Assembly (NCBI GenBank): GCA_964349125.1
Contig: CAYGFH010000002.1
Span: 174,484 to 238,483, forward strand
Source: an uncultured Gammaproteobacteria bacterium
GTDB lineage: Bacteria; Patescibacteriota; Microgenomatia; UBA10105; UBA927
Length of the DNA stretch: 64,000 nucleotides
Reading direction: 5' to 3'
Below, piece by piece: positions 3,001-52,900 of this stretch; within the stretch, counting starts at the first letter, position 1, and each line of letters opens with the position of its first letter. The position numbers and the translations under genes were made by a program. The notes under the pieces were generated by a model. The model was given only the letters and a program-made list of their open reading frames with translations. It ran no database searches and was not told the origin of the DNA.

Positions 3001-6000
3001 TATTTAATTCGCGAAGCAGCTGGATTCTGTCCGGATTTTTCAGCAGTTTCTCAAATGCAGTAACCTGATTGTGATAATTCCTGACGGACTTTACAATGAC
3101 CGGAATCCCCTCAATAAGTTGCCATACTTCCCTCCCCTTTGCATACTTGGGAATAAGTTTAATCATTTCTAAAACATGCACATGTCGCCAATCTACCAAA
3201 AGAATCCGTAGAGGCCTGATAACAAAAAGCGCTGCATTGGTCAATGAATTTCCGCTTTGATTTAGTCTCTTTTCAGAGTCATCTGTAATTTCAATAGGAG
3301 AAACGTTCTCGATCGTCTGTTTTTGTGTATCTTCCTTTGTATTATTCTCTGATTTTTCAATAAAATCCCTATCAAAGGAAAGTGCCTTCTCCTGTTCAAA
3401 AAACTTCAATGTATCTACTTCGCTAGCGGGTTGAATTCTACCGGTTAAAAATACGTTGTACAAAATGGGACTGGGCAACTTCCCTTCTTTTTCATAAATC
3501 ATCTCCAGCATCTTCTGCTGGTATTGGTATAGAAACTGTCCGGCAAATATCCGTGCGAATTTTGGATCATTCCGTAGCGCCAGTAATTCTTCATAATATC
3601 CCTTCACTTCTTTTTGCCACTGGATTGATTCATCCAGAGCGTTAGTGCTCACGTACTGCTGTCTGAAAGGCAAATTCAGCATGTATGAAATGATAGATTC
3701 TGACGAGCCATTATGAGTCACGGGGCGCACCATTGGCTCAGATCGCTGATAAAACAACCTGCTAAGCTCCTTGAAATTCGGTATCAACTGCTCCATTTCC
3801 CCTATAAATTCGCTATCAGTAAGATCCAGCCTGTTCCAATACGGAAACAGTCTGTTGCGTAAATACTCTTCGGGATATGCATGAGTAATGAGGCCGCCAA
3901 GGGTAATAAAGTCTCGAATTTGAAACATCCCTTCATACAACAGCCTTATCTGCCATTTGTACCAACCTACAGTTTCAGGAATAGAATTTTCTCCCGCGGT
4001 TGCTTTGGGCTGTTGCCACTTGCGCCACTCGTTTATAATCTTCTTTTCTTCAGGAGTTTCAGGCTCTTTTATATACCCTGGCGGTAAAGCAGTCGAATTG
4101 TCGTACGGATCTTGAGGCAAAGATTCTACTTTTAGGACTGTAATTTGAAAATCAGGATCAGCCGTTTGAGTGGGATTCTGTTTCACAGATAGAGTCGATG
4201 CTGATCTGACCTGAGGATACTCTATAGGAGTAGGTTTCTCAGTACCCCGAGAATAAGCCAAAATATACTCAGTTCCTGCATACATTTGCTTATGTTCGAA
4301 TACGTAGTTGTCCTTATATGCTGGTGTGTATAACTCGAACAGATCTATATTGTCAGGTAGAATCTCATTTTTTGTACGATCATGTAGTGCAGCTGCGTGT
4401 GGCGGTAGTGATGGGGCTGCAACGGAAATAGTATTTGTTTGATCATCCCGAATTTTCACCGTGAAGTTGTAGGCAAATGCAGATTCCGTACGAGTGAAAT
4501 TAAAATTTAGGGCCGCGTTATTCAACTCAATTACAGGATAGGTACCATCGGGATACGTAACTCCTTCTAAACTCTTATAACTTATCCAAGTACCAGTTTT
4601 TGACGGATTTATATTCTCACTCACCGTGCCATCTTTCTTCAGCGTTAGTACATCCTCTATCCCTAGAGAAACCGTTTTTATATCCGATTGTGATCGCGCG
4701 TAAAGGAGAGCAGATCTATAGAGTAGCCTGCCGAGACCTCCGCCTCTGGTAGTAGGAGACACGTATACAAGACCGATATGCAGATCATCGGGTGATTTCC
4801 CTGGATTTAACCCAACAAACCCAAGCGGCACACCTTTTGCATCCGTAAGTTCCAGTACGACGGATCCAGGAATAGTGTCATCAAACGCCTCACCCGTAGA
4901 ACCAGGTGAAAATGCCTCCGGAACTTTTTTCACTACCGACACTTTCATACCATCTGGAGCATCTACTGCAAGTTCAGAAACGAGACTATCTGTGGGTTCG
5001 GACACTGCTTTTGATTGTTGCAGAAAATATTCTCTGAGTATCGCTATTTCGTTTTTATTCTCTGGATATACTTGTGAATACAATTCGAGAATGAAGTTTT
5101 TTCCGGTTGCTTCGTAGTACATCTTCAATAGTCCTTCATAATCAGCTCCAAACATCGCGATGGCCACTGCTTTATCTATCTCCGCTATCGTAAAGCGCTG
5201 AGTATTTTTTAATTCGTCAACTAACGCCATCGCTACACTGACTTCTTTACTATACGGAGTCCAAGAGCCAAATAATGAGAATATTTTGTTTGGTTTTTCT
5301 TTGCCAAATACTTCAAGTTTTCTTCTGGCGACCTCCGTTAACCCTTCATGTAACAGAGAATATGCCCCATTTATGACCTGCCTGGTTTCCTTGGTGCCTT
5401 CAGTAATCCCATCAATTCCAGCGACCTCAATTCTAGAAAGATTTTCTTCTATAACCCCTCGCTGGAGCGATGATTCGGATAAGGTAATATGCGACCTATT
5501 TGGATTATTTTGAGCCTGTATTCTGTGGATATCTTCATGCCGTTGTATTACCTTGTTTGTTATCAGCGTATATATATATGTTTTATCAATTAAAGGACTA
5601 TATGATGATGATCCCTTTGCGAGAAACAGTTGCCGTAAAAACCCTTGAAACCCACCTACGTGGATATACTGATCGGCTGAGGATCGTTCAACATTGATTT
5701 TCTCTTCAAGTCCGAGTGATGTTAAATATGCGCGTATATATTCAATTTGCTTATCTTGGATAACAAATTTTGCATACTGATGCGCTGTAATCCATTGCAG
5801 TATTCTGTTATGGATAGGATTTGCTACGGCTCCGATGAATGATCCTACTGGTCCAAAAGCACTCCCAATAACGGCTCCTATGACTACACTCGACACAGGA
5901 ACTGGTGACATTTTCTGAAGTATCTTCTCTCTAACATCTGAGACTGAAGGAGACACGTCAGATTGTTCATATGAATTCTTATCAGCAGGTTTTGTAGATA

Positions 6001-9000
6001 AATTTATCTTTATTGGGTGTAAATAGGATTCTCCATTTGTTTTTGCCGAGCGGAGGGTTGGATCAAAGACGACTGGCTCAAGGAATCTGTGTTTCTCTGC
6101 CACGTTTGCCGAAAAGAAATTGACCATATTCCCTAGAAGCTTTACGGATTGATTTTGGGTAATTATGCCAACAGCATTCGCTGATTGCATTGCGCTTTCT
6201 GCCAATAATTGAACACCATCTGCATACGATAATCCGTTCGGAATTTTATCCCGCTTCGGCAGTTGTTTATAAAATTCCAAGAAGGCATCTGCAGGAGAAA
6301 CACCCTTAGCAAGCGCACGAGTGATCAGTAATTCCCCAAACTGGCTTTGCTCCACCAGCTCAAAGTGTGCTGCATACTCTTTGGATACCATTGCAAGCAC
6401 TTCTTCCTTTGCCTGAGCGTATGACAATTCCGGATACTGCTTCATGAGAAGCGAAATCATAAATCCGGTCGCCATGCCTTCGTTCCATGCCTCGTTCATT
6501 ATCGGCCCCAGAAACCTCACCATGTCATGCCCTGCTTCATGTGCAGCCAACAGAAATTGTATGCGCTCAATATCTTTTAGATTTGCGCTCGCGCGAATGA
6601 CGTAGAGTCCCAGCCGCTCATCATAAAATGCCATCACGTTCTTTTGCTTCGGATAAAACAGTTCAAATTGTGCATCAGAATACACGACTGTGTTGTAGTG
6701 AATAGGATCTTTCTCTGCGAGTGGAAGCGGTAATTTGAGGTTGTTTAGAAGTGTTCGTATAGTTTCTACAATGCCAAGCACACGTGCACGGTTGAGTCTG
6801 TCCGGGTGAGCGTCATCAGGAGTCTGCTGCGATTCATACCATGCTTCTATCGCCTCTTTGCTTACGTCTGATAACTCTACTCCAGAGTCCTTGAGTGAGA
6901 GCGGATATCCCGCTGGATCTTTGATGTGTAAGGCTACATACCCTTTTGCCAGGCCGTTGTTTTGCCAAAACGGCTTTGTATAAAACTGTTTTAGTACTGC
7001 ATCCTGCCCGTCTTTTTGCTCCAATTGTGCTACCTTGAGCAGTGACCGTGTTACTGATTTTTTTGCTGCTGGCGTAATTGTCATGCGCATATCTGCAACA
7101 ACATCAGATGCTACTGCCGCCGGTGCTCTCATAATTTGCTTTGTGGCACGTGATGACAATAGCGCGGGCTCATCATGAATTCCCATGGATGCGAGGATCG
7201 CTTTACTCACTAAATGCGCAGGATCTATCGGGGGATTTACTTCATCCTTCAGGTATTCTGCAACTTCGTCAAATTCAGTTGCGGCTGACTTAAACGCTTC
7301 GGGTAATTCCGTACACCCAAGCACCACCTGTACATCCATTTCCTTCAATTCCTTCACCAGTGCCAACACTTCTTTATGCATTTCGTGCTTGCTGTTTATC
7401 GTATAGCCTATCTGATCGCGAATCTCATTTGGGACAAATGCATTGCCGACAGACACTTTATCCATCCATATGATTTTTTGCACACGGCTCATGACATTCT
7501 GCGGCAATGTATCTTTCTTTTTTTGCCTGTATGTCGTAAGGCCGTGTTTCTGTGACATGGTATTCATAAATACATCGGTTCCCAATATAATCACATCACT
7601 ATTATGTTTTGCGAAATTCACAATCTGATTGATGGTTAGGTAAAAGAGTGAATCACCTTCCCCCCACCGAATAGCCTTAAGTGCCACATCATGAAGCAAG
7701 CTGATAGTGTTACACGCGACAGAGAATTGACACCCGTACTGCTTGGCAAACAGGCGTAATTTTCCGTACAGTTGTGAGAGCCCGAGCCGAGCGTTAGTGT
7801 TGAGCATATCTGCTATCACAGTAGGCTTCATGCCTACCGCCGTCATAAGTTTTGCGACCCAATTTGGGATAATGCGCTGTGCTGCCCCAAAGTAAATGAG
7901 CGTCGCATTAATCCTCGGATCCAGCTCATCGGTAAAGGCAAATCCTGATCCGATATCTGGCGCCGCAATCCATGTCCGACCCGCAAGATTCGGGAACGGG
8001 AACGTTTCAATATCATTCACCAACTGCCAACTGCCATCTGCTTTTTTTGTATATACTGTGTCTCTATCCGCATTATTGTCTACTCTGATCCTGATGCGTG
8101 CACCCGGCTGTATGTGATGAAGCGGTAGCGCCTGATCCTCCAGAGGATACCGGATCCCTTTTTTCGGGAAAAAGAGAGCAAATTCTCTCGTAGTTGTTTC
8201 ATTTGGCAATACACCCTCCAACCACATAAACGCATCATGTTTCGCTCGCATCAAGCTGTCGGCAACCAAAGGCAACACTTGCATGCCAGGTCTGTAGGCT
8301 GTGAGTTTGGTGCGAACTTTAGAGAGGAACGCAGATGTATCCGCAGTACGAAGATCATATGTTGCGCCGACTGCATCCGCACCATCTCCATACAGCCTTG
8401 CCAACCGATTATATCCGCGTTTTTCGTCACCAAAATATTTCAACAGATACACATCCAAATCAGGCACGTTATTGTTGAGTTCTTTTTGCAATCCGGCGAG
8501 GTGGGCATCCGCACTGTTACTGCGTATCCTGTCCTGACTGGTGTACACCCATTTGGAGACAGTCGGAGCAAAATCATAGGCAACGCCGGGATGGAGGCGG
8601 AATGAATGCTTCTGATTATCCAATTTACTGGTATAGGTGTATGTATACGAAGAAAGGGCATCGGTAAATTTGCCTGCGAGGGCAAAGAATCCTTCCTGAG
8701 TAGTAGGTATTCTGGAGTTTTTTATCTGCGACAAGGTGACACCTATCGCTTCAGTTATGAGCTGATCCCCCAGTTCATGCCCTTCAGCATCCTGCAGAGC
8801 CTTGAGCTCTCCGGGAGAATCTATGGCTATCACATGAGCAGAGCCAGCCCTGCCGGGATAGGCAACATAGAGCTCTATCCCCCGTCTGAACGTAAGAATT
8901 TGTCCTGGTTGTATAGTGGCGAGCATCTGTTGGAATACCTCCATAGACCGGGTGGATATAATCGTCGGATCATTAGGACCATATCCAAGCTTCTTGACCT

Positions 9001-12000
9001 GTGCATCCACTACTGGATCGGTAAACGCAGCTACCATAATCCGTTTTGAAACCTGCTGATTATCCTGATTCGGATCCTTTGAAATTCTATCTGTGACAAA
9101 TTCACTGAGCATTTGTGCTATTCCCGGATATCCTTTTTTCAAAAGATCCTGAATTTGTAGGTCGGTAACCTTTGGCAACAAGTCACCGTTTGCATCGCGA
9201 ATTTCCGCATAAAATTTGGATGTAGACCAGGCAATTTTGATAGGCAATTTGGCAAGGCCTCCGGTTTTTGTGGCATACACCCACTCAAGTCCGTCCTGCA
9301 TGAATACATCTTTACCCGAAGCGGGATCAGTAGAATTAAATAGAGCCGTATGAATGCGTTTTTCCATTTCGACGCGTCTATCATCTGAGTGTTCTATCGC
9401 ATTGTTTAATTTTGTTATCTCAGATTGCAGCGTTCTGATCCGGATTTCCAATTCCAAAATTCTTTTGGTAGCTTCATTACTGTCTCCAGACGGTTGATCA
9501 GAAAGCTGTGATACTAACTCCCTCATTTGAGCTATGGTTTTTTCCAATATATCCTTCGATTGTTCACGCTGCATAACCATATCCATATCCTCAGAAAGCT
9601 CGATAATCAGATATTCATCTCCGCTTATTCCGGCGCGGACAATCACACACCGACCACAAATACCCTCTAACCGCTTCGATAACGCACCGATACCCACTCG
9701 AAGCAACATATCTCCCCCAACCATACCCAGAGGTGTTTCATTTGATTCACGAAGACTGGCAAAATCTACACGCCCAACCACTTTTCCTTTGAGTAAATCA
9801 AGAAAAATCTGTTGAGTAAAACTTGTGTACACAGATTGAGAATCTGCATATTCAGATGCTATTTTTTTAACATCCTGTAGAATAGGAATTCCGTTTGCAT
9901 ACTTTTCCCATATTGGCTCAACATCAATAAACTGTGCATGCATCGGATCGGTAATCAACTGCTTGCGCAGCATTTTCTCCTGCGTCGTCGGCAATATAAT
10001 ACCCCGTGATCTCAGTGTGCTTATAAACATGTCCGCTAGTCGCAAAGCTCCTTCTGTATTTTTTGTCTGTTCGTATGCGTTGGGTAGCTCAAAAAGCGCC
10101 GTATCCAGCTGAGAGAGCTCTGAAATCTGTTCCTCATTCACAAAAAGGGAGACCAATTTGTCCGATACCGTGTGATTTTTTGCCATGGCCCGCTTCATAG
10201 CGGTCAAAAATCCCTTCGGATACGATGTTCGCAACTTTTCATCATCTAATGCTCCCAAAAACATTTCACCGTTTTTGTAATCAAAAAAGTCATCTAAAGT
10301 ATCAAATTCGTCTATGAAATTATTTATGACAAACGGCTGATCAAGCTTTGTTTTTCTGTCTTCAAGTGAGTGGAATTTCTCGTAAAGATACGCAAGAACC
10401 GGATTGCGTTTAGGATTCGGTGAGTCCTCGGTATAGTGCGGATATGTGCCAATAACCGCGGCATTGATAGCAGCAGCAAGGCTGGTAATCGCCGTATTTC
10501 TTCCGGTAATATTTGCGGAAAACAACTCCTGTGATGAAGTGGATGCCTGATCACTGTTGAGTGTAGCTGAAAGCTCCTCCTGTGTCAGCTCTACTATAAG
10601 TTTCCACAGCGTGTCTGATATCTGAACTCCTGGAAACAGGTGCTCGCGCAGGTAGGGAGCATTATGAAGAACAGCCAGATTAAAAAGCTCAAGGGATCGA
10701 GCGGCCGCATGTTCGTATCGGGGAGTAGCAAATCTTCTCACTCCTCCATTAATGGATTCTGCATAGATACCGGTATCCCTATACAGAATTGTAAGCTTTG
10801 TGGATGCATATACGGCCTTTTTCAGATCTTCTTTTGGTAGTGTGTTACTGGCCGCATCACTGGTCAAAAACGAAACCTGCGAATAGACATCCGGATTATT
10901 CACCTGTTCAAGCAGTTCAAGCATTTTTTGTGTGCGGGTCACTATTTTCCCTTTTTGTGCAGCTATAACACCATGGAATCCCCCGCGCAGTGACTGAAAC
11001 ACATTTTGCAGTAGCTTCCCACGCTGGGATGTATCGTGCAGTAGTTGTTTAATAGTGTAGAAGTATGATCGCGTAATAAATGTTTCCGGATCTAATAACT
11101 CATCGTTATGTACAGATTCTGTAAGTGTTCCATCCTGTTCAAGAATGGGTTTGAGCGATGCAACCTTAGCTGTTTTGTTTGCATAAAACTTTGCATATCC
11201 GCTTTCCAATGCCTTTGATATCGGGTGTTCTGTCACATCCTGTGAAGTGGGTGCTTTCAATTGTCCTGATACAACCAAATCCGTCCCCTTTATCATCATA
11301 GTCGGTGTGATGTCTATATTTATCAGTGTTTTTGCGGATAACACCGGAGCAATCAGAATTGTATCTTCGGGTTTTCTGATAGTTGGCATGGTACCCCATG
11401 CATTCGGAACCAGTGGGCCCGATACATATGAGTATTTCTGATCCGGAGTATCTGCATGCCACCAGGTACCTGTGTCGGGTATATCGGCTGAGACAACCTG
11501 TTCATTCACTGTTCCGTCAGAATCTATTGTATGAATCGGATACTTGGATTTGTAGTTAATCACGCAGGTCTCCCCTGCCTCGCCCTGGGCAAAGACGGAG
11601 GGGAGGAATAGGGATGATAGTTTGCCACAATTATCTGTCAAGGCAATATCCTTCTGTACTTGTGGTTTTGGTCGAATTACCACACCCGAAATCTCCCTAA
11701 CTCCAGGCTTTCTAACACCCCCACCTATTTCCACATACGGATCTCCGAATACGGATTCCGGTATATCTACAGAGATATCTTGTTCTCGTATGTCAAACTG
11801 GTCAGAAATGCCTATATCCTCACTTTGCAGTAGTTTCATGAAATTATCTTTGCTCGTATTCGCGCTTAATAGGGCGGCATTACTGACGGACATATTCATA
11901 GGGATAGTTGGGAATTCTTTCTGTAAAGCCTGAAGCTTTTTAATAACCACTAATGTGTTCGCTGCCAAAACATCCGGTGTTTTCGTTTCGTATAACGTAT

Positions 12001-37900: not shown

Positions 37901-40900
37901 TCAGAGCTTCTGTCCATTCCCCGGATGTAGGCACCTGTTTTTTTGGGTATTCGACAGGTTGGACCCTACCAACAGGTTCAAACCCTATCTCACTGGAAGC
38001 ATCGTGTGATACCGTCACGATATATTGATGTGCAGCTGCATCATGCGGCGCTCGTTCGAAGGTGAGTACATCACCAGGTCGGATTTGATAGGCAACTTCG
38101 TTTCTCAAGAGTTCTGACCCAATGTAGACACTTTGTGTAAATTCTTTTGGCAGACGGAGCCACATGGCGTCACCTGAAACCCCCATGTATACATATCCCC
38201 CATTGATCACTGATGGATCTGGAAGGCCATCCGAAGGAGTAGCGATCTGGTTTGCTACAGAGGTAAATCTCACGACTTCGTCGGGCGCATCTTGCGTAAA
38301 CCTGAATCCGTTAAAACTTTTTGTGAATGTGTCTGTGACAACATCATGATCCAAAGCCACTTCTACTGCTTTTCCATCAACAGTATAGGTAGCCTTCGTT
38401 ATGCTCATTTTTTCCAAAATTTCAGTAAATTTGGTTCGCAGCTGCAAGCCCACAGATATATCCGTTTTATTTGTTTCCACTGCTTGAGGATTGATGTCTT
38501 TTGTCAGATTGAAAAATTCCATAATCTGAGCAATTCGATTATTTGTGGATGTATCCAGCTTAAATAATGTCCCAATCACACTGTCCTCAAACGCGATAAA
38601 GTGAGATTTATATTCAGGAGACACGAAGTCATTGAGTACCTGTTCTCTAGCCTGCTTCCAGTATGTGCCATCTGTATCAGGAGTTTTACCAGCTTCCTGC
38701 AGCTCATACGCGCGACGAGCTATCATGAAAGTAATGGAGAGCGCTTCATTTGCCTCGCGGGTAAGCCAAGGCTCATACCTCGTTGTCATACTGTGACCAA
38801 ATTCATGCGCCACAAGATCGTCAAGAAACGCCTGTATTTTTTCGTCAGATTTTGCGAGCACAGCTGCACTCGCACGAAGAACAACCATATCAAAATCATG
38901 GTCATAAAATCCGGGGATTGTTTGGGTATACTCCGTAATCTGAGAATCTGTAGGATTTACCACACCATCAAGCCGCAGTTTTCTTCTGGCAAATGCACGA
39001 AGTTCCCGGTCAAACGATACATCATCAAGCACAGCAACTGTCCGCTGCAATACAGTGCTGTCCGATGGGACACGTGCAGCTTTGGCAAACGCAACGACTT
39101 TATCGACAGATTGCTGCACTATGCTACGCTCCAACACTTCCTGCTGAGTCAGCCACCGCAGCAGTGCCTCCTCGGTCTTTGATGATAAGACATTTCCGTT
39201 TCTTTCAATAGGATAATTATCAGGATCATAGATGTGTTGCCTGTAATACCCCTTGATTGAATGGTCAATTACCGCAGTATCAGGATCCGAAAGCGCGACG
39301 CTCTGCAGCGCAAACTTAGCCTGTATGAATGCGGGCGATTTACCGATATTCCGGATTGTCCTGTATGTTGGATAGAGAAACATCAAGAATTGATCCATGA
39401 GGTTTGCTTTTTCCCGCAATTGACCCGTCTTTTTGTCATATATTCGTCGATCGTTTATGACGGTTGACACATCTGAGACAATCTGCCCAACTGTGGCGCT
39501 CATTTTCATGAGTTTTACGGCTATGGAATCGTTGGCTTGCAATGGTGAAACTGCTTGCGATTGACTTCGTGCTACTCCCACTTCACTGTTCAATGTGGGT
39601 TGAACACCTACCTTGTTCATTGCGTCGATTATCACATTCCAATCTTCCGGCGGCGGATAATGACCGCTTGTCCTTCTGGTCATAAACGATGATCTATTCG
39701 GCAGCGGTGGCTCGATATTCTTCATATCCCATGCAAGCACAAACGTAAAAAAGCTGTTCAAAATATGATCAATACTTTTTGCTGTTTTTTCTTCCGAATC
39801 CGGCACTACCAGTTGTAATCTACCCTGATTTACCAGTTCACGCATCTGGGTTTTATACTTGAAAAGATCCTCAAGTGATGCAAGCATAACCAGATCCTTC
39901 CCGGCCATTTCCGGGTTCTTGCGTTCGGTAGCTGTGTGTACTGAGCGGGAGGTCACGATATGAAACCCGTCTGAATACACATCCAGATTGTCATATATGC
40001 GTCCGAGTAGACTGGTCCATTTCCCTTCATACCTCAGTACAGGCAGGCTTCCGATAGACATAAAGAATCGCCTCCAAGATGCCGGAAATACGGGATTATT
40101 AAATACTCTGGTTGCCCATTTGAGAAATTTATCCGCTCGTAAAGCGTTACCTTTGAGTTTTGTATCCGGATACAATAATGACAAATGATTGGGATTATTA
40201 TTTACAACAGACGCATCGCCTACGAAGCGCACATTTTTATACCGTTCATCTTTATATGTTTCAATACCAAACATTTCTACCGTGTAGGCACCGTAAGAAT
40301 GGCCTAGCATCAGTTCGATCTGTTCAGAATCTATGCCCAAGGCGGCGTTACCGATCTTTATCTGCCTGATCACATCCTGCACCACATATCGTCGACTCCC
40401 GCGAAGAATTGGAGGTTTCGCTTTATTTAACGCCCAATATGCTAATTTGCCAACATCTGTTACGTTATACCACCATGCCTGCAATCCGGTGATCCGTTTG
40501 TAATTCCCATCACTATCAAGCACGGGTTTTCCATCCTGCGTCGTCTCCACCACCCAGCTTTTCTTGCGCGCGGTTTGTTCTGCCCCACGAAGCGATTTGG
40601 CATCAGCAAATACAGGATTTTCTAGCGTAGATTCAGGAATGGCAAATTTCGAGAACAAGCGGAACACTTCCTTTGACGCATGGAATCCGTGGATAAAAAT
40701 GCGGACTTTCTTATTTTTATTTGCCAACATTACAGTTATTCTGTTTAGAAATTCCGGATGATCATTTTGTTGCAGACGTTGTAGCTCTAGGAGCGTTTCA
40801 GTCGGTAGTCGGATGGTAAGTAAATCAGCCGAATACTCTGCGCTGGGATCTTCAACATCAGATGAAATGGTTTCAAACTGAAAAATTCCGGCCCGAGGAT

Positions 40901-43900: not shown

Positions 43901-46900
43901 CGCGTTGGTATACGCTCGCTATATCAATAACAGCATCGTTCAGATATCGTTCTACATCCGATATTTTTGGACGCTGTGTTCCGGTTTGAAATATGGTCAA
44001 TTTTTTCCCTTTTTGTTGTGCTATCGCGATATACACCATCGCCTCATCCAGAATCTCTTTATATGTTGGATTATTTCCGGGATAACGCTGCGACGATGTT
44101 CCTTTTTGCGGTATATGGAGCCTCTCATGTAAAAATACGTGAATTAAGGCAGCTATCTGCTTTTCCTGTGACATTTTCGCTATTTCTGTATAGTTTATAA
44201 ACAATTCGGATACATCATCATCAGCATGTCTATGCAATCCGGTAAAGCCATCCGAGTACAGCTTTTTTGCCAATTCATTACTTACTGGATTTATGACCAC
44301 ACCCTTAAGATACTTTTCTCGTTCTTTGAGCGTGACCGCTGTGGAGGGTGGTTTTTCAAATAAGGATGAACGACTCTTACCGGTAAGACTTTCCACTGCA
44401 TCACCGAGTGAGTCAACTAACGCATCTGTATTGTTTAGCAACGATTTCTTGCCTGCAAATTCGGTTAAAGTGTCAATTGCAGCCAGTGTATGTCCGAGAA
44501 GCAAGTATATTTCTCCTTCACTGAGCTGATCAATTTTCTTTATCCCTTTCCCTTTATAATCTGATGTTCTTGTTATCAAACTATCTATTCTTGTTCTCAT
44601 CCCAATATCAAATACGGGGAGGACATGTTCTCCCATATCCAAACGGCCTATGACATATCGATAGGTTCGGTCAAGCCGCGTGAGCTTGTCTTTTTTGACC
44701 ACTCCAGAAAGCATTTTTTTTGCGTCATCTATAGAAATACTTCCAGCCTGATTATTATTTTCCTCTCGCACTTTTCTGACTTCCTCCGACAATATTTTAC
44801 GCAAACCGGACTGGGTATCCGCGCGCTGAAGTGTAAGTTCTTGCCTGTTTCTACTCAATTGCGCAACTATGCTCACACCGTTTGTGAGCGTAATTATTGA
44901 CTTATTATAAAGTGTGGTTACCTTTGCTTTTGTCTTTATCTTTTTCCCATCCACCAAAATTCCATTAGTAGATACGTCACGTACATACCACACACCGTCA
45001 TTGACAAATATTTCTAGGTGCCGTGCATCTATCGTTTGATCGTTGCCGTCCAATATTATATTGCTCACGTTTGCAGAAGAACCCAATGAGGCTATAGTCG
45101 ACCGGACATCGTTTTTATTTAACTTCGTTGTTGCGCCGTCTGTTAATATTTTTGTAGCTGTATCTTGTGAATATGAACGGATACTACCTGCTGACCCAAA
45201 AAATGCAACCTCTTTTCCACTCTTCTCATCTATCAACTGCATCCCACTGGATCCCTTGCTCACAATAAACGATGTGCCCCCAATGGTAAGTACATCCCGA
45301 TCGTTTAATAGCGTTTCTGAATTATACGCTTTTACAACAAGATTTATGTCGATCTGTGATTCTGTACTGACGTTTTTCACATACCAGTTTCCGTCTGCTT
45401 TTCGTACTATATTTACGCTCACAGCAGCTATATCAGTGTCCCCGCTGACTATGATGTCCGCTTGATTTCCTTTGCCGAGTGTAAATACGCTACGGATAGA
45501 GGGGTCTGCATACGTTTGCAACACGGATTCCCCGGTTTTATTCACGAACGCGTCTCTCCCATACCGCCCGATGAACGCAGGCGTCAACCGGATACCCGCT
45601 TCCTGCATAAATAGCGCAACGTCCGTGCGATAATCAAATGTAGTCTGATTCTTCGCACGACCGCTTATGATCCCTATATCTACAGCGTGGTCCTTTAATT
45701 TTTCTGCCTGTAAATCCTGTATGCCATACGACCACTGTTCTATATGCATAAGCGCTACGTTTCGCAACTGATCCATGGTCAATTTGGATATATCAGTGTT
45801 TCCAAGCATGAGTGTGCCTTTCAGATGCTGCGATGAATTTTCGAATCGTAACCCATTTTCGGGATCAAGCGTGTTTTTTCCTTCATCAACAAGCATACCT
45901 ACCCCTTCGGCAATTTCTTCTGCGTTCGATTTAGATAACTGAGAAATGACTTCCTCATATTTACCTGATTTCATCATTTCGATTGCCTGTTTTACATGAT
46001 TAATATATTTTTTCTCTCGTGCGTTCCATTTTGCAGACGAAAGCAGTGCTGGAAACGGATCTTTGAGCACCTTTGCCGAAGGCATAAGGGAGTCAATTTG
46101 AGCGTTCACGTCCGCAATCACAGCCCGTACCTGACTGACACCTCGTGCCAATCTGGCAATAGGCAGAACTGCCCCTTCCAGCGCATACCTGATATGCTCT
46201 AGTGCGCTCAGATTCCCCTGTGCTTTTTTGATCGCCTTCTCATAAAACTTCAACGACTGTTGTATGAATTTTGTTTGCGCCGTTCGTTTCGCGTCCCCTG
46301 TGAGGATCTGTCCCAATGTCTCTTCATTATATTTTGGAATATCCATCCCCAGATAATCCGTCAATTGCCCCATAGGCAGGAGATAGGTACTCATAGCTAA
46401 GATCTGTTCAGCGGAGGCACGAAGCGCTGCTTCTTTATTTTTGGGGAGCGATCCACCCATATACTCACCGTACGCAGCTTTTCCTGCTGCCATAAGCTCA
46501 TCTACTTGTACGCTTTGAATACCATTCAACACATCTGCCGGACCCGATTGCGCGCTAAACGATTGCTTCAGTGACTCCAGTAATTTTGCGTACATGGTCG
46601 CACCCATGATACTGTCGATTCCGTCGGCTGATATTTTTGTTTTGTTATCCAGCGCATCTACAGCCGCAGTTAACTTATCTACATCTGCTCCTGCGGATAC
46701 CACAGATGAGACCAATCTCACATTGAGCGATTCGATAAATTTGATGATTTGAGCAGGATCACTAGGTACATCAAACCCCAGATCAGAAAGTGCTATACCG
46801 ATCGCTTTGACATCTGCTGCATATGCGTCTGGGGCGATAATTCCGTTTGCGACTAAAGCCTGTATTTTTGAAAATATTCCTTTTTGATTCCCATCTGTTA

Positions 46901-49900
46901 ATCGTTTGTACTGAACTAATATGCTAGCCTCTACCCCAGATTTATTGAGAAATCCGTTTTCATCAACATCATCAGCTATTATCCCTGCTTGCAATCGTTT
47001 AATTTTCCCGTTAATGCTGTTTGTCAGCTTCACTATATCCTCTGCCCTACCAATCATGTCAGTCAATGGAGAAAGCCCGGTCATGACTACCTTGCGTATC
47101 TGTTCAGCTCGATCAACCGTTTGAGAGCGTCCAATGGCTCTAAAAAACGCCGGAAGAATTAATGAACTGGTATAGTCTTGAATTCCCCGTACGTTTCCAC
47201 CTATCTGCGTAATGATCGGCCAAATAACATTACTCCCGATTTTTGTAAGTTCCATTAATGAAGCTAAATCCACGGTGGCCACTGAATATCTTTGTAGTGC
47301 AATCGAGGCATCGATTGCTTCATTCATATCGGTGGCTGATATAGAGGTGAGTTCTGGTCTGAATTCCTGAAGCTGACTCTTGAAGACGTCACGTACCTTT
47401 TTTTTATCAATTTTATTTAGTGCGTCCAATTTTTCCTGAATTGTTACAGGTTTTGGCCGTGTTCTGTTCATCTGACTCACTATTTCTTCTTTGATAGTGG
47501 TAAATACCGTCAGGTGGTAACCGTCTTTTGCTTTTTCATCTGTCCATTGCAGGAAATTTTTGACGGCTTTGGCAAATGGCTTGGTTGCAGAATCTGCCGT
47601 CATGGCGGATGAGAATTGTGCTTTATCCAGCTTTCGTATATACGAAGCAAGTCCGGTATAGGTCGTTGCACTTGTCTTCGCCAGACCTAATGATTCCAGT
47701 TCGTCCGCCAGTTTTCTCAGATCAGCCGTTGCCCATTCTTTATTAAGTAATTTTTGAGAATCTGATAACCCTTCAAGCGCTGTGAGATTATTTCTGACGG
47801 CAAGAAAATCTTCATAGACTTCATTCACTTTATCGGTTTTCGACGCCTTTGGAGGGGATGCCTTTGGCTTAGCCACTTTCGTGTCATACTGGTCGCGCGC
47901 CTTGGTTTCCATACTTATTGCTACCTTATCTACCCAAGCTTCATATACATCATCTGACACAGATCCCTTCGCGACAGCATTCCGTATCTGTGTAGTTAGA
48001 CTTCCAAAAATGAGCTTCCTTCCACTTTCCAATAGAGATACACCATACGCAATAATTTTATTTTGTTCTGCACTGGTCCATGCGCTTGAAAGCGCTCCAA
48101 CATCCTGCACAATACTGTTTAGTTCCGCAGTCAGGAATGTATCTACCTTTGCGGTAGGATCTACTGCCAAAAGAGCAGCGAATTCATCTGTAGCCTCGTA
48201 CTCTGCTCTCCGATCCCGTACAATCGTTGGAACAGAGCGTTTTGTAGACAAAACATCCTCAATAAAATCCCCTCTATATTCAGCTACATATTCGGCAAAC
48301 GCGGTGCGCGCGGCATCCTTTGCAGTGTTTGCAGCAGCAGGTCCAGGTATCTCTGTGACCGGAATTTGCACGAAATCACCATATTGTATATTTCGCAGTT
48401 GTAGCGGTGTAGCACCATTCATTTTTTGATATCTGGCGGGAGCAAGCAATTTATTCGCCGGATCGATAATAAATGCGATCAGATTGATATTTATCGTATC
48501 TTCCGCTGATGATAGTGTGCCATTTTTCACATAATTCATTTCGGTCTCAAATATATTTGCCGCTATGTCTTTCAATTGTTGTTTGTTTACTTCCGTGCTA
48601 CTAAGATCTCCGAACCCTCTTTGAATTTTTATACGAATATCGTCATTCAATACGCTCGTAAATCTCGTTGAGGTTGAAGGTAGACTCGCGGCATCAGCAG
48701 CGGCGATAGCCATATCTGAAGCTAACAGCCCCTGATATAGAGTGAATGCATCCTGCGCGGTCAGATCACCCGGGAGCTTGTTTTGATTCACTATCACCTG
48801 TGCCTTATCCATAAGCAACTTTCGTCCTGTCGGTGTCGCGTAATTACCACCTACTATAGCTGCGGGTGTGACCGCTTTTGCCGGTAATTTAGACAGTTCC
48901 GCCGCTTTTCTGTCCAGCCAAACGAGGAAAAGTTGGCGCGTAACATCTGTGGCTTTCGGTTGATCTGCGATAGCACTCAATAATGCAGCTTTCGTATCTG
49001 CTATGGATTGCCCCTGATTCACAGTTCCAGCTGCCACCGCTCTATCGGACGCCTCATTTAACACCGAAAGCTGTGCAATAATTCCTTCTGTAAATTGCAG
49101 TGCGTAGATCATTTTTTGGTCTTTATCAAAAACTGTATTGGTCCGATCCGGGTTTGTTGATCCGGGTACTGTCATCAGAAGGTTGACGATATCCAAGGTT
49201 GCTTTATCCGGTGTTTTTTTCAGGATTCCTTCTTCGATCATAGAAAGTAGCTTACCAACATTTTTTGCATCCGCGATATATTTTATCCACGCTGTTTTGA
49301 GATCGAACATCACCTGTGCTCTCTTTTTTGTCGGAGCATCTGTCAGAGCGTCCAATTCCTTTTTGTCTATCGCTTTATTGGCAAAATTTATCGCTTCTAA
49401 GGTGGTTGGCTTCGCAACCAATGCATCAAGTTCTGCCGTGGCCGCCAGATTTGACAGCGTTCCTTTTTGATTATATGGATCGGACGACCAGTACTCGAAA
49501 TATCCTCCGGGGGTAACCGATGAACGAAATAGATCAAATAGTATAAGTCCCAGACTTACTTTCGGTACCATGATAAGCGGCAATCCTCTACTTCCCAAGA
49601 ACCAGCCGGTTTTATTTCTCGGCGTTGAGAAGAGTAATTTACTAAACCATGAGTCAGTAACTTTCCATAAATTCTGCTTCCATTGTGGTAAATCATCAAA
49701 TGATGCAGGTGCAGGAGCAAATCCCGGAATGATTTTACCCACCGCTTCGCGCCAGGGAACATTTGCCCCAGTTGTATATACGGCAGGTGCTGCGGCGCCG
49801 GTATTCATATATCGGTCTACCCAGCGCATCACATCCATGATAGGAAGCCACCACTGTTGTGCGCCAAAGGCCACAAAGAATCGGGTAACTCCCCACACCG

Positions 49901-52900
49901 GCCATTTGAGCACATTGATAACAGGGTGCACTGTCGGATCATTCCACTGCGTCGGGAATAGCAGTTCGTTTGTATCGAGCAAGAATCTCCATGGAGAATC
50001 TTTAGGAATTTTCTCCAGGAAATGTCTACTTTCTTGGAGGAGCCAGAATGGCAACCCAGCGTGCAAGCTCACGGCACCCTTTGTGAACGTAAATGCTGTC
50101 CACCAGTACGATCCTCGGATGCCTGCCGGTACCAGCTGGGCTAACCATTCTATCCCGTTTGCACGAGGCCAGGATACGCCGTATGAACCAAGGAGTGAGG
50201 TAACTTTAGACCAGAAAGTATCTTTTACTTCATATGTACTATCTGAAAGCGTAGTAGTGACCCCAGCTCCACCGGTTGTTCCCGGGGTGGTATGTTGTAC
50301 TGCAGCAGGTGTCCGATTTCTGAAACGGTTGTTTATGACCATATTCAATACGTCCGTACCTATGAGTATGGGATTAAATCCTGATAGGCTCCAGCGGGTT
50401 ACAAGAGACACCGTTTTTATGACACCCCATGTCGGTGTTTCATTGTTCCCTAGCGGATTAGGCGACAAGATATATGCATGGATACCGTATAGATTTTTAT
50501 TGCGATCAGGAGCACTATCTGCAGGCTTTGGTATTACATTAATCATCGAAATGATGTTAGAGAAAATAAACAGTGACGTAAGCAAAGTAAATCCCCTAGC
50601 CCAAACAGTTGTCGAAACTGCTGTACCTGTGCTTACCGCTGTGGAAATGACAGGTGCAACTGCAAAGGCAATTGAGATGGCGTTTAATGTCAGGGACAGA
50701 CCGGCAATTGTGGCAAAAGCCCCAATTGTCCATCCACCCCATATCGTTATCTTTGCAAGTGTTTTTTGAAATCCGGTAAAACTATCTGACCAATCCATTG
50801 TTTGAGCGAACAGAGCTTGAATCGATTCTGCTGTTCCAGCAAATACATCCGCCACGAATCGTGCCCCGTCGTGAATAAGAGTCGGGATTATCAACTGTGG
50901 CACAAAGAGGCCTCCGACAAATCTGGTGCCTACCCATGAAACGGTTTTCCAGAATCGTGCCGGCGGCGTCAGGCCCTTTGCCCAGAAATTTGGGAAAAGG
51001 ATATTATCCCCTATCCAGGCGTGTGTAGTCTTAAATGTTGGATTATCGGAAAGATGAACTGATGTATTGTATACATCGTATGCAAGCCAGGGAACACCCA
51101 GTCCAAATGTCTTTGTAATGATAAAGACTGCTGTTCGCCCGGCTGAAATAGCAATTTGTCCCCATTGGAATTTCTTTGTAGTACCGTCATACAACTGAGG
51201 ACGCACCACTGCGTTTATGATACTCCCAAGCCATGAACCAGCCTTTGCGACTGCACCTGTGACGGTTGATTTTGTTGAAGCAGGAGCCACGGGAGAGGAC
51301 GAAAATATACCAAACACATAATTTGTCGGCACTTTTGTATCCACAGATTGAAGAACATTTGCATCGTACGCGTAGGTATAGGTCGTGACGTCAACTGGTT
51401 TTGAATCTATGGTCGTTCTTCCGGCAATTCGTGTCGTCCCAATGAACCGACTGTTGGCATCTCTATACGCTGCGCTCAGTCCGACATCCAGACCTACTAC
51501 GGTTCCGTTATGATACACCGGATCTTTGAGAATGTTATGACCATGATACAGGACGGGTGCGGTAAATATGCCACGATATGCATCAGAAATCGCACGACTG
51601 GAACTGAATTGACCATGATGCGTCAAACTGCGAAACAGCGTACGCAGTTGAGGCACGCTTGCTAGCCGTATTTGTGCCCGAATACCGGCATTTATCCGTC
51701 TAACCACGTCTTCCGGAGTCAGTTTTTCTGCTTTAACTCGCGCTGCAATTCTGTTTATATCGTTTATATCCAATTCATCATAATCCTGCACGGCGGCTAT
51801 GTCATCACTAAATATAAACTTTGCATAAATAGCGGTATCGGTATGTTGCATGACTGATTTATCTGAGCGAAGCGATATCCAAGATAGGTTTTCCAACCAT
51901 CCGCGGATTAATCCAAGGTGCTTCTTTGCGATCGCTACTTCTCTCCTTGAAACACCGTTTCTTTGGAATAAATCCCATCTTGGCGAATTATCCGGCTCAA
52001 ACATCGCCCAGAGGAATTCCACTTCATGGTTGCCGCCAAGCATGGTAAATTCTGATCCTGCAGCTTCAGCCTGAGACTTGAGTGCCGTTAGACGATTGAG
52101 TATTTCAAGGCCGGGATAATACTTATCTTTTTTGCGGGCCGGATCGTTTTCCAAGAAAGCCTGTATGTTGCCATCTTTATCTACACCACGGTCCATATAA
52201 TCGCCGAGGAATATCACCTTCGCGCTATTGCCCCCTACCCACTCCCAACTGCCGTCAGATTTCACGGTAATCAGATTATCGGCCTCGAGCATCTGTTGAA
52301 GCTTGGTTACATCTGAATGATAATCCGCATACATATACCTGAGCGTTTCCGCCTGTGTTTCGGTAACTTTGACTGTTTTTTGTGTTACTGTCTTTGTGCT
52401 CGTCAAACCGGCCATAATTGCCGTCGTGATTGTGGCAAAGTTCGGATCGACAACCTTTGTGACAAACTCATCGTACGCTGCTTTCGCTTCGGCCTGCGTC
52501 AATCCTGCGGCGGTCAGCTTCGCCAGTATAGTTGTAGTATATGCAGTATTACTAAATCCACTCTTAAATATCCCGGACCTGACAATGACCTCCACCTGCT
52601 CTGCTGCCTCATCAGGACGAAGCGGTGTATCTTTGAGCTTGGCAACTTCTGCAAGGATAGCTGCCCGCTGTGAGGCAATCAGTTCAGCATAGGCCGTTCG
52701 TAGAATCGCGAGCGCGTCCGTATTCTTTTTAGCTTTCTCGGCCGCAATTGCAGGATCCACCACAGGGGCAACGACTGGTGGCGCAGAGATTGGTGGTGCT
52801 GAAACTGGCGGTGTAGTGACTTTTACAGAATTTAACACCGGCTGTGTCAATGAGTCTAACCATGCAGTATAGTCGATAACTGTTGCATCACTCTGCAATT

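Follow-up and report, generated by a model that had tools for sequence, protein, structure and literature searches.

Paired palms within one chain, one of them degenerate, are known from pseudo-heterodimeric palm cyclases such as the class III adenylyl cyclases (C1/C2) and from Cas10 (Palm1/Palm2). For the diguanylate cyclases (DGCs) of the GGDEF family (PF00990), one publication (PMC7825114) states that two GTP-loaded GGDEF domains are required for the synthesis of cyclic dimeric GMP (c-di-GMP). In a second (PMC3974145), Ser or Ala at the first position of the GGDEF motif is described as compatible with activity, as in the SGDEF enzyme ECA3270 of P. atrosepticum and the AGDEF enzyme VCA0965 of V. 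cholerae. GGDEF domains have moreover been reported in giant proteins of Omnitrophota (the 'Archaeovorins') and of Actinobacteria (West-Roberts et al., bioRxiv 10.1101/2023.11.21.568195). Here we describe a 64,000-nucleotide stretch of contig CAYGFH010000002.1 (positions 174,484 to 238,483 of the forward strand; assembly GCA_964349125.1), referred to below as the window, in which a giant gene on the minus strand (gene B) contains a GGDEF-like segment. We consider it reasonably probable that this segment is the catalytic half of a very divergent GGDEF palm (domain D1), with a second domain (D2) as its intramolecular partner, in a cassette that has been shuffled within the candidate phyla radiation (CPR).

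The two domains were compared with the described members of the GGDEF family, including PleD, the T. maritima DGC (4urg), E. coli DosC (4zve) and DgcZ. In common with these, D1 carries a beta1 Asp, an FK..ND-type Asn, a GH..GD..L block and a hairpin in the same order and spacing, while D2 displays the beta1-alpha1-alpha2 elements, alpha3 and the SxGxA strand. Unlike them, D1 has (S/N)GDEY as its signature, a loop longer by two residues and CxxC in place of RxxD; its C-terminal half has diverged, and the D1 of the window protein also carries an inserted coiled coil of 84 amino acids (aa). In D2, no catalytic hairpin separates alpha2 from alpha3. In addition, D1 and D2 form a fixed tandem in one chain, and both fall under the Pfam threshold. 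With the active SGDEF and AGDEF enzymes described in PMC3974145, D1 shares the replacement of the first Gly (Ser in the window protein and in its relative P0001) and the intact G-D-E core. It differs from them in the change of the last residue from Phe to Tyr, in the longer loop and in the Asn found first in the relatives P0002 and P0003.

What D1 and D2 share with the domains reported in giant proteins of Omnitrophota and Actinobacteria is their setting: in both cases a DGC-type domain is located within a giant bacterial protein (>10,000 aa), and the lineage concerned is ultra-small or dependent on a host. The reported domains were seen by standard domain annotation, whereas D1 and D2 are invisible to Pfam, and the relatives described here point to Patescibacteria (Microgenomates group), not to Omnitrophota. 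This precedent for GGDEF domains in giant bacterial proteins weakens the view, expressed in the original prediction, that such a domain would be unexpected in a protein of this kind.

The flagged segment occupies positions 9590-9769 on the minus strand (as are all gene B features below), inside the interval 9560-9800 first assigned to it, and both of the motif strings that had been quoted are present. Translated in the frame of gene B, it corresponds to VDFASLRESNETPLGMVGGDMLLRVGIGALSKRLEGICGRCVIVRAGISGDEYLIIELSE and contains GRVDFASLRESNETPLGMVGGDMLLRVGIGALSKRLEGICGRCVIVRAGISGDEYLIIELSE (B residues ~7261-7320; residue numbers of gene B are counted from window base 31552). The motif blocks were thus present as quoted, but the DxD proposed for the first of them was wrong: there is a single Asp (RVD), and Ala, Thr or Ser stands in the family where the second Asp would be. 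The insertion proposed for the GG(D/E)EF loop was confirmed, the distance from the conserved Arg to G-D-E-Y being two residues longer than in R-x-GG(D/E)EF. A loose regular expression of five ordered motif elements, drawn up post hoc, matched once in the 21,157 aa encoded by gene B and the neighboring giant gene A, and in none of 2,000 shuffles; a chance origin of the motif is unlikely.

D1 extends over 9185..9841 (B aa ~7238-7456) and would be a divergent GGDEF-family domain holding the flagged motif. The four family sequences are 26-46% identical, and within this block their alignment shows no variation at K, R-x-D, L, N, L, GD..LR, C..C, I.R and GDEY.I. The beta1 Asp (9764..9766), which occurs as RVD, RYD or RLD in the family, aligns with the metal-binding Asp of GGDEF domains, i.e., the D of DxDxFK. 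The Asn of ESN (9740..9742) aligns with the guanine-contacting Asn of FKxxND, and the Gly-Asp of GGDMLLR (9710..9715) with GHxxGDxxL. We take the RVD Asp, the Asn and the Asp of GD to be the approximate equivalents of D327, N335 and D344 of PleD, respectively. The D1 hairpin, R-A-G-I-S-G-D-E-Y (9611..9637), represents the family form of R-x-G-G-(D/E)-E-F, in which R, G, D, E and Y are invariant. Its signature, R-x-x-x-(S/N)-G-D-E-Y, is aligned by hhalign such that the Arg matches the pre-signature Arg and (S/N)-G-D-E-Y matches G-G-E-E-F. The conservation of metal-binding residues, for which a check in homologues had been proposed, is therefore observed in all relatives, and extends to the base-binding residues.

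Two further features distinguish D1. A CxxC motif (CGRC, 9647..9658; invariant C62 and C65) is situated roughly where the RxxD inhibitory site (I-site) of canonical GGDEF domains would be. Its position in the alignment suggests equivalence to that site, and the pair of cysteines could serve as a redox or metal switch. The RxxD site itself (five residues before the signature) is absent from both D1 and D2. Following the D1 hairpin, the window protein carries an 84-aa coiled-coil hairpin insert (9338..9589; alignment columns ~160-236), predicted by AlphaFold2 (AF2) as helices 99-128 and 134-180, with predicted local distance difference test (pLDDT) values of 75-86. The insert is absent from P0001, P0002 and P0003.

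Evidence for D1 was obtained by comparison of profiles. The D1 family profile was aligned by hhalign with a diverse GGDEF template of ten sequences (five PleD-like sequences together with DgcJ, DgcP, DgcF, DgcZ and DosC of E. coli K-12), with a probability of 92.3%, an E value of 5.5e-7 and a score of 46.5 over 90 co-linear columns. In 150 column shuffles the mean score was 12.8 (standard deviation 2.6, maximum 19.5), and the reversed alignment scored 15.3; the real score is thus ~13 standard deviations over the shuffles. This result upholds the proposal that the segment represents the beta1-alpha1-alpha2-hairpin half of a GGDEF-family domain. When the D1 profile was searched against all sequences of the PDB, the best match was 5m3c_A, a diguanylate cyclase, with an E value of 0.048 and with GD..L...R-GGDEF as the aligned motifs. 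A home-built GGDEF hidden Markov model, run with filters off on A, B and P0001 to P0003 (~36,000 aa), reported seven matches, six of which were located in D1 or D2.

A second, clearer GGDEF-like domain downstream of the flagged segment, designated D2, had no place in the original prediction. D2 lies ~115 residues beyond the end of D1 (SAHVIAIDSPGELKALQDAEGHELGDQLI ... SFRLHPGVAY). Its core (8471..8839; VIAIDSPGELKALQDAEGHELGDQLI ... RLHPGVAY) shows no beta2-beta3 hairpin between alpha2 and alpha3, and the counterpart of this block in P0002 is LFLDVPGVFKQINDTYGYQEGDKF. The whole-cassette profile, searched against the PDB (E<=10), gave ten matches, all of them GGDEF proteins and all on the D2 block. 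The D2 profile alone gave 33 matches, 25 of which were GGDEF proteins, the best being the T. maritima DGC 4urg_A (E 9.8e-5). By hhalign, D2 matched GGDEF profiles with probabilities of 94-97% (best 96.8%, E 2.7e-10, with the diverse template), far over its 150 column shuffles. PF00990 matched D2 in two of the four members (best E 9.6e-5); in P0002 the score was 21.5 bits (E 2.2e-4), which is below the gathering score of 23.8 bits and is thus sub-threshold.

Among the residues of D2, the beta1 Asp is invariant (IDSPG, VDTPG or LDVPG) and aligns with the D of DxDxFK. The GD pair is likewise invariant, and the FK-type Lys and GH/GY..GD are retained. The position of the Asn is occupied by Asn in P0002 and P0003 and by Gln in the window protein and P0001. 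In every alignment of D2, a gap of ~14 residues falls at the xxR-x-GG(D/E)EFxxxx of the target, and in the AF2 model alpha2 runs straight into alpha3 (pLDDT 80-90). D2 is accordingly homologous to GGDEF domains but lacks the catalytic hairpin where it would canonically lie. Taken together, homology of D1 and D2 to bona fide diguanylate cyclase domains is supported by these profile alignments.

Several results weigh against the assignment. PF00990, the profile with which a HMMER test of the flagged segment had been proposed, proved negative for it in every family member (for the window protein, P0001 and P0002 there was no match even at E<=10), and it did not match D2 of the window protein or of P0001. 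Pfam, NCBIfam and PADLOC returned only coiled-coil noise for the window segment at E<=10, and none of these curated profiles recognized D1 in any of the relatives or D2 in the window protein. When the template was a PleD-only profile, the co-linear alignment of D1 was unchanged, with an E value of 0.008 and a probability of 4.8%, such that the make-up of the template matters. In D1, nothing equivalent to the phosphate-binding Lys/Arg helix at the C-terminus of GGDEF domains was identified, the D1 and D2 profiles showed no mutual similarity by hhalign, and the family alignment is shallow, with four sequences from three lineages. The AF2 model calculated with this alignment has low confidence in D1 (pLDDT 50-70, and <50 at the GDEY loop), and a Foldseek search of the whole 480-aa model against the PDB produced no GGDEF or palm structure among the 50 matches listed.

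The Foldseek matches listed were dominated by coiled-coil (seryl-tRNA-synthetase) similarity, and single-sequence AF2 was uninformative (pLDDT 45). With 401 aa as the query, phmmer retrieved beta-lactamase noise from the PDB (E~0.1) and no GGDEF protein, and in a BLASTP comparison with an approximate GGDEF sequence of PleD the motif region was left unaligned.

Structure prediction, which had also been proposed as a check, was favorable in one respect: the AF2 model of D1 shows the order b-a-a-b-b, a long helical hairpin (the 84-aa insert) and two long strands, which is the order of a palm, but neither its confidence nor the Foldseek matches listed lend it further weight. According to the original prediction, the call was to be given up if no significant profile match were found and the predicted fold were not that of a palm or a related cyclase. 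The results come close to that outcome, and the call is rescued only because the profile-profile comparison is positive. By the curated threshold, neither domain is a member of PF00990 in the strict sense.

The same negative results could be taken to mean that D1 is not a palm at all, and that a chance or convergent motif stands beside a genuine, crippled GGDEF remnant (D2). The lack of a curated-profile match for D1, the low hhalign probability with the PleD-only profile, the nil similarity between D1 and D2, and the low AF2 confidence with no palm among the Foldseek matches listed would all agree with this explanation. It is nevertheless improbable in view of the ~13 standard deviations that separate the 90-column alignment from its shuffles, the failure of the regular expression to match any shuffled sequence, and the diguanylate cyclase found as best PDB match on the same motifs. 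The predicted order of secondary structure, which fits a palm, and the D1 hairpin, which resembles a GGDEF hairpin far more closely than any other block of the region (see below), argue in the same direction.

Directly upstream of D2 beta1, a beta-hairpin is predicted, QILTFRRGIELYVAY (8858..8902), with invariant R33, R34, G35 and E37 (RRG-x-E). Its strands (327-333 and 336-342) are predicted by AF2 with pLDDT values of ~80. On the basis of the model, the RRG-x-E hairpin may be a transposed stand-in for the lost catalytic hairpin of D2: together with the short loop to beta1, it would restore the order 2-3-1-4 of the palm strands, with the turn at the same end as the beta1 Asp. The possibility of a circular permutation was assessed by grafting the RRGxE hairpin into the D2 gap, whereby the hhalign score changed from 53.1 to 55.9-59.5, ranking 4th among 66 control blocks. 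This is indistinguishable from noise, and the circular permutation of D2 is unproven. The D1 hairpin, grafted into the same gap, scored 69.4 and ranked top of the 66 candidate blocks by far.

Because D1 keeps its putative metal- and guanine-binding residues, the sequence speaks for a nucleotidyl cyclase that is active rather than for a remnant in decay. The competing explanation is that D1 and D2, although derived from GGDEF domains, have lost catalysis and function as a nucleotide sensor, an interaction scaffold or a structural module in the manner of PelD, FimX, and CdgI-type or YybT-type proteins, the residues having been kept for ligand binding. The loss of the catalytic hairpin from D2 is consistent with such a role, as are the non-canonical (S/N)GDEY of D1, its longer loop, its scores below every curated profile threshold, and the C-terminal Lys/Arg phosphate-binding helix that was not identified. 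Moreover, degenerate active sites are attributed to about a quarter of the known DGC-type proteins (PMC3974145). On the other hand, all five core positions of D1 for catalysis or base binding are unvaried in sequences of 26-46% identity, the pattern expected of an active site. The RxxD I-site, at which degenerate GGDEF domains usually receive c-di-GMP, is replaced by CxxC, and enzymes with SGDEF or AGDEF can be active. Catalytically dead domains are a possibility that has to be reckoned with, but we regard it as unlikely.

The original prediction had also considered a Cas10/mCpol-like palm or a class III cyclase. A CRISPR polymerase palm of the Cas10/mCpol type, or a class III adenylyl or guanylyl cyclase, would have in its favor that tandem palms, one of them degenerate, recall the two-palm layout of Cas10 and the C1/C2 layout of class III enzymes. 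However, the D1, D2 and whole-cassette profiles led to GGDEF proteins in the PDB (E up to 10) and to no Cas10 or class III cyclase, and the PADLOC defence models gave only coiled-coil noise. The motifs FK..(N/Q)D..G(H/Y)..GD and R..G(D/E)E(F/Y) are, in addition, specific to GGDEF domains. Origin from another palm-cyclase lineage is therefore highly improbable, and the likeness of D1-D2 to C1/C2 and to Palm1/Palm2 would be a functional analogy only, with no sequence similarity detected.

To find relatives of the region, 1.84 billion cluster representatives were searched exhaustively with HMMER, with B aa 6701-7900 as the query. Five proteins were returned, of which four were true relatives: P0001, a stand-alone protein of 1,717 aa with three N-terminal hydrophobic helices; P0002 (7,335 aa), which contains a Fic domain elsewhere in the chain; P0003 (6,004 aa), with P0006 in the same 90% cluster; and P0004, a fragment. 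The fifth, P0005, was rejected as spurious, its match consisting of seven identical repeats at ~12 bits each.

The relatives define a cassette of ~1,350 aa (7154..11251; B aa ~6768-8133), for which BLASTP against P0001 gave 31% identity over 1,438 aa (E 7e-175). The cassette opens with a helical N-terminal region, which is followed by D1, a linker and D2; a middle region then leads to a racemase-like domain. The cassette is internal in gene B, forms the C-termini of P0002 and P0003, and accounts for nearly all of P0001 (residues 231-1534). Its N-terminal ~450 aa gave no match in the PDB. The GC content of the cassette is 0.448, versus 0.442 for the window, which shows no compositional anomaly.

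The cassette is rare: about six proteins are known, in clusters of one or two members each among ~15 billion proteins. No D1-bearing relative was found in 185,579 GTDB species genomes by D1 motif patterns, and an exact 51-mer scan was also empty; a scan of metagenomes recovered only P0003. A word-indexed protein search, made with the window segment and then with the family alignment, returned nothing, and missed even P0001 to P0004, all of which are representatives in that collection; this result is read as a limit of sensitivity rather than as absence. Where genomic context exists, it points to CPR/Patescibacteria-type genomes as carriers of the cassette. The 965-kb contig of P0006 encodes a ribosomal protein L11 that shares 97% identity with its counterpart in a Microgenomates-group metagenome-assembled genome (MAG).

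The loci of P0006 and P0002 are alike. In both, genes for a MerR-type helix-turn-helix protein and Dus are located upstream, and genes for a CopG antitoxin, an AAA_14/DUF4143 protein and a stand-alone Fic protein downstream (L002, 9304-9841 and 28138-28717; L003, 55-1440 and 23670-23948). P0006 is flanked on both sides by BrnT/CopG toxin-antitoxin pairs, and a single CopG antitoxin gene lies downstream of P0002 in L003.

The C-terminal domain of the cassette (7193..7969, ~260 aa) is marked by the invariant motifs APDxGSG, ACNT and GCTELP, and both of the Cys motifs (xCNT and GCTE) are invariant. PF01177 (Asp/Glu/hydantoin racemase) was the top family in three of the five members, all of the matches being sub-threshold (best E 0.0013, with a cut-off of 31 bits), and the domain was matched to the aspartate racemase 2zsk_A with an E value of 1.3. 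From its sequence, it probably belongs to the Asp/Glu/hydantoin-racemase superfamily. The same domain was found fused to the C-terminal subunit of a transketolase in a Patescibacteria MAG (JAYEJP010000019.1; L004, 2026-3795).

The window itself is occupied by two tandem giant open reading frames (ORFs) on the minus strand, which are separated by an AT-rich spacer of 394 bp (GC 0.32). Gene A (31947-63869) encodes 10,640 aa. Gene B (2-31552) is stop-free over 10,517 codons and open at the left end of the window (>10,517 codons), with candidate ATG starts at 31528, 31465 and 31357. Plus-strand ORFs in the window (e.g., 49570-50769, 399 aa) are antisense to the giant genes and are assumed to be spurious.

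In the more than 21,000 aa of A and B, only two Pfam domains were detected: a GNAT domain in gene B (~4661-4867, E 5e-7) and an FHA domain in gene A (~44886-45086, E 6e-13). The two proteins have a single stretch in common, of ~230 aa at 28% identity (6326-6946 in gene B, 38562-39254 in gene A), which was without match in a Pfam scan. It includes a conserved HExxH (AHEAGH at 6527-6541 in B and AHEFGH at 38793-38807 in A), which may be a zinc-metallopeptidase motif.

Transmembrane-like segments were very few in A and B according to a crude hydropathy scan. A glycine-rich hydrophobic segment, VVIGAVIGSAFGPVGSFIG (5831-5887), is located ~420 aa past the cassette, and is the sole strongly hydrophobic 19-mer of gene B in a Kyte-Doolittle scan. 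Adhesin-type repeats were not seen in A or B. The description of the gene B product as a giant surface protein is thus unsupported, given that such repeats are lacking and that only GNAT and FHA were recognized by Pfam across the two proteins.

In terms of mechanism, the beta1 Asp of D1 and the Asp-Glu pair of its hairpin would bind metal, while the Asn and the Asp of GD would bind the guanine base, such that D1 would provide the catalytic site of a nucleotidyl cyclase. D2 would act as a substrate-holding or regulatory partner, by analogy with the degenerate half of a heterodimeric cyclase. Since two GGDEF domains, with one GTP each, have to come together for c-di-GMP to be made, we infer that D1 and D2 may pair within the chain. 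The cassette, which ends in the racemase-like domain, would have been shuffled among giant proteins of CPR/Patescibacteria-type bacteria.

In a more far-reaching version of this scheme, D1-D2 would be a single-chain, constitutively paired cyclase for c-di-GMP or another dinucleotide, with D2 circularly permuted and the Glu of RRG-x-E next to the beta1 Asp, and the cassette would be a second-messenger effector used by CPR episymbionts on or at the host surface, in the manner of nucleotide-cyclase toxins. The combination of all these elements is doubtful.

What is new in this system is how far it has diverged, together with its (S/N)GDEY signature and longer loop, the CxxC, the hairpin-less partner and the retention of the pair in a rare cassette. 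Should the domains prove to be dead, they would still constitute a documented pair of GGDEF remnants conserved as a scaffold. If D1-D2 is active, it would represent a GGDEF lineage that is invisible to current domain databases, with an unusual signature, a CxxC at the usual place of feedback inhibition and a built-in partner domain. This would be relevant to the number of c-di-GMP enzymes overlooked in genomes of candidate phyla, and to the question of whether a chain with two GGDEF domains can bypass the dimerisation control of ordinary diguanylate cyclases. It would also offer a first enzymatic handle on the near-unannotated giant proteins of ultra-small bacteria.

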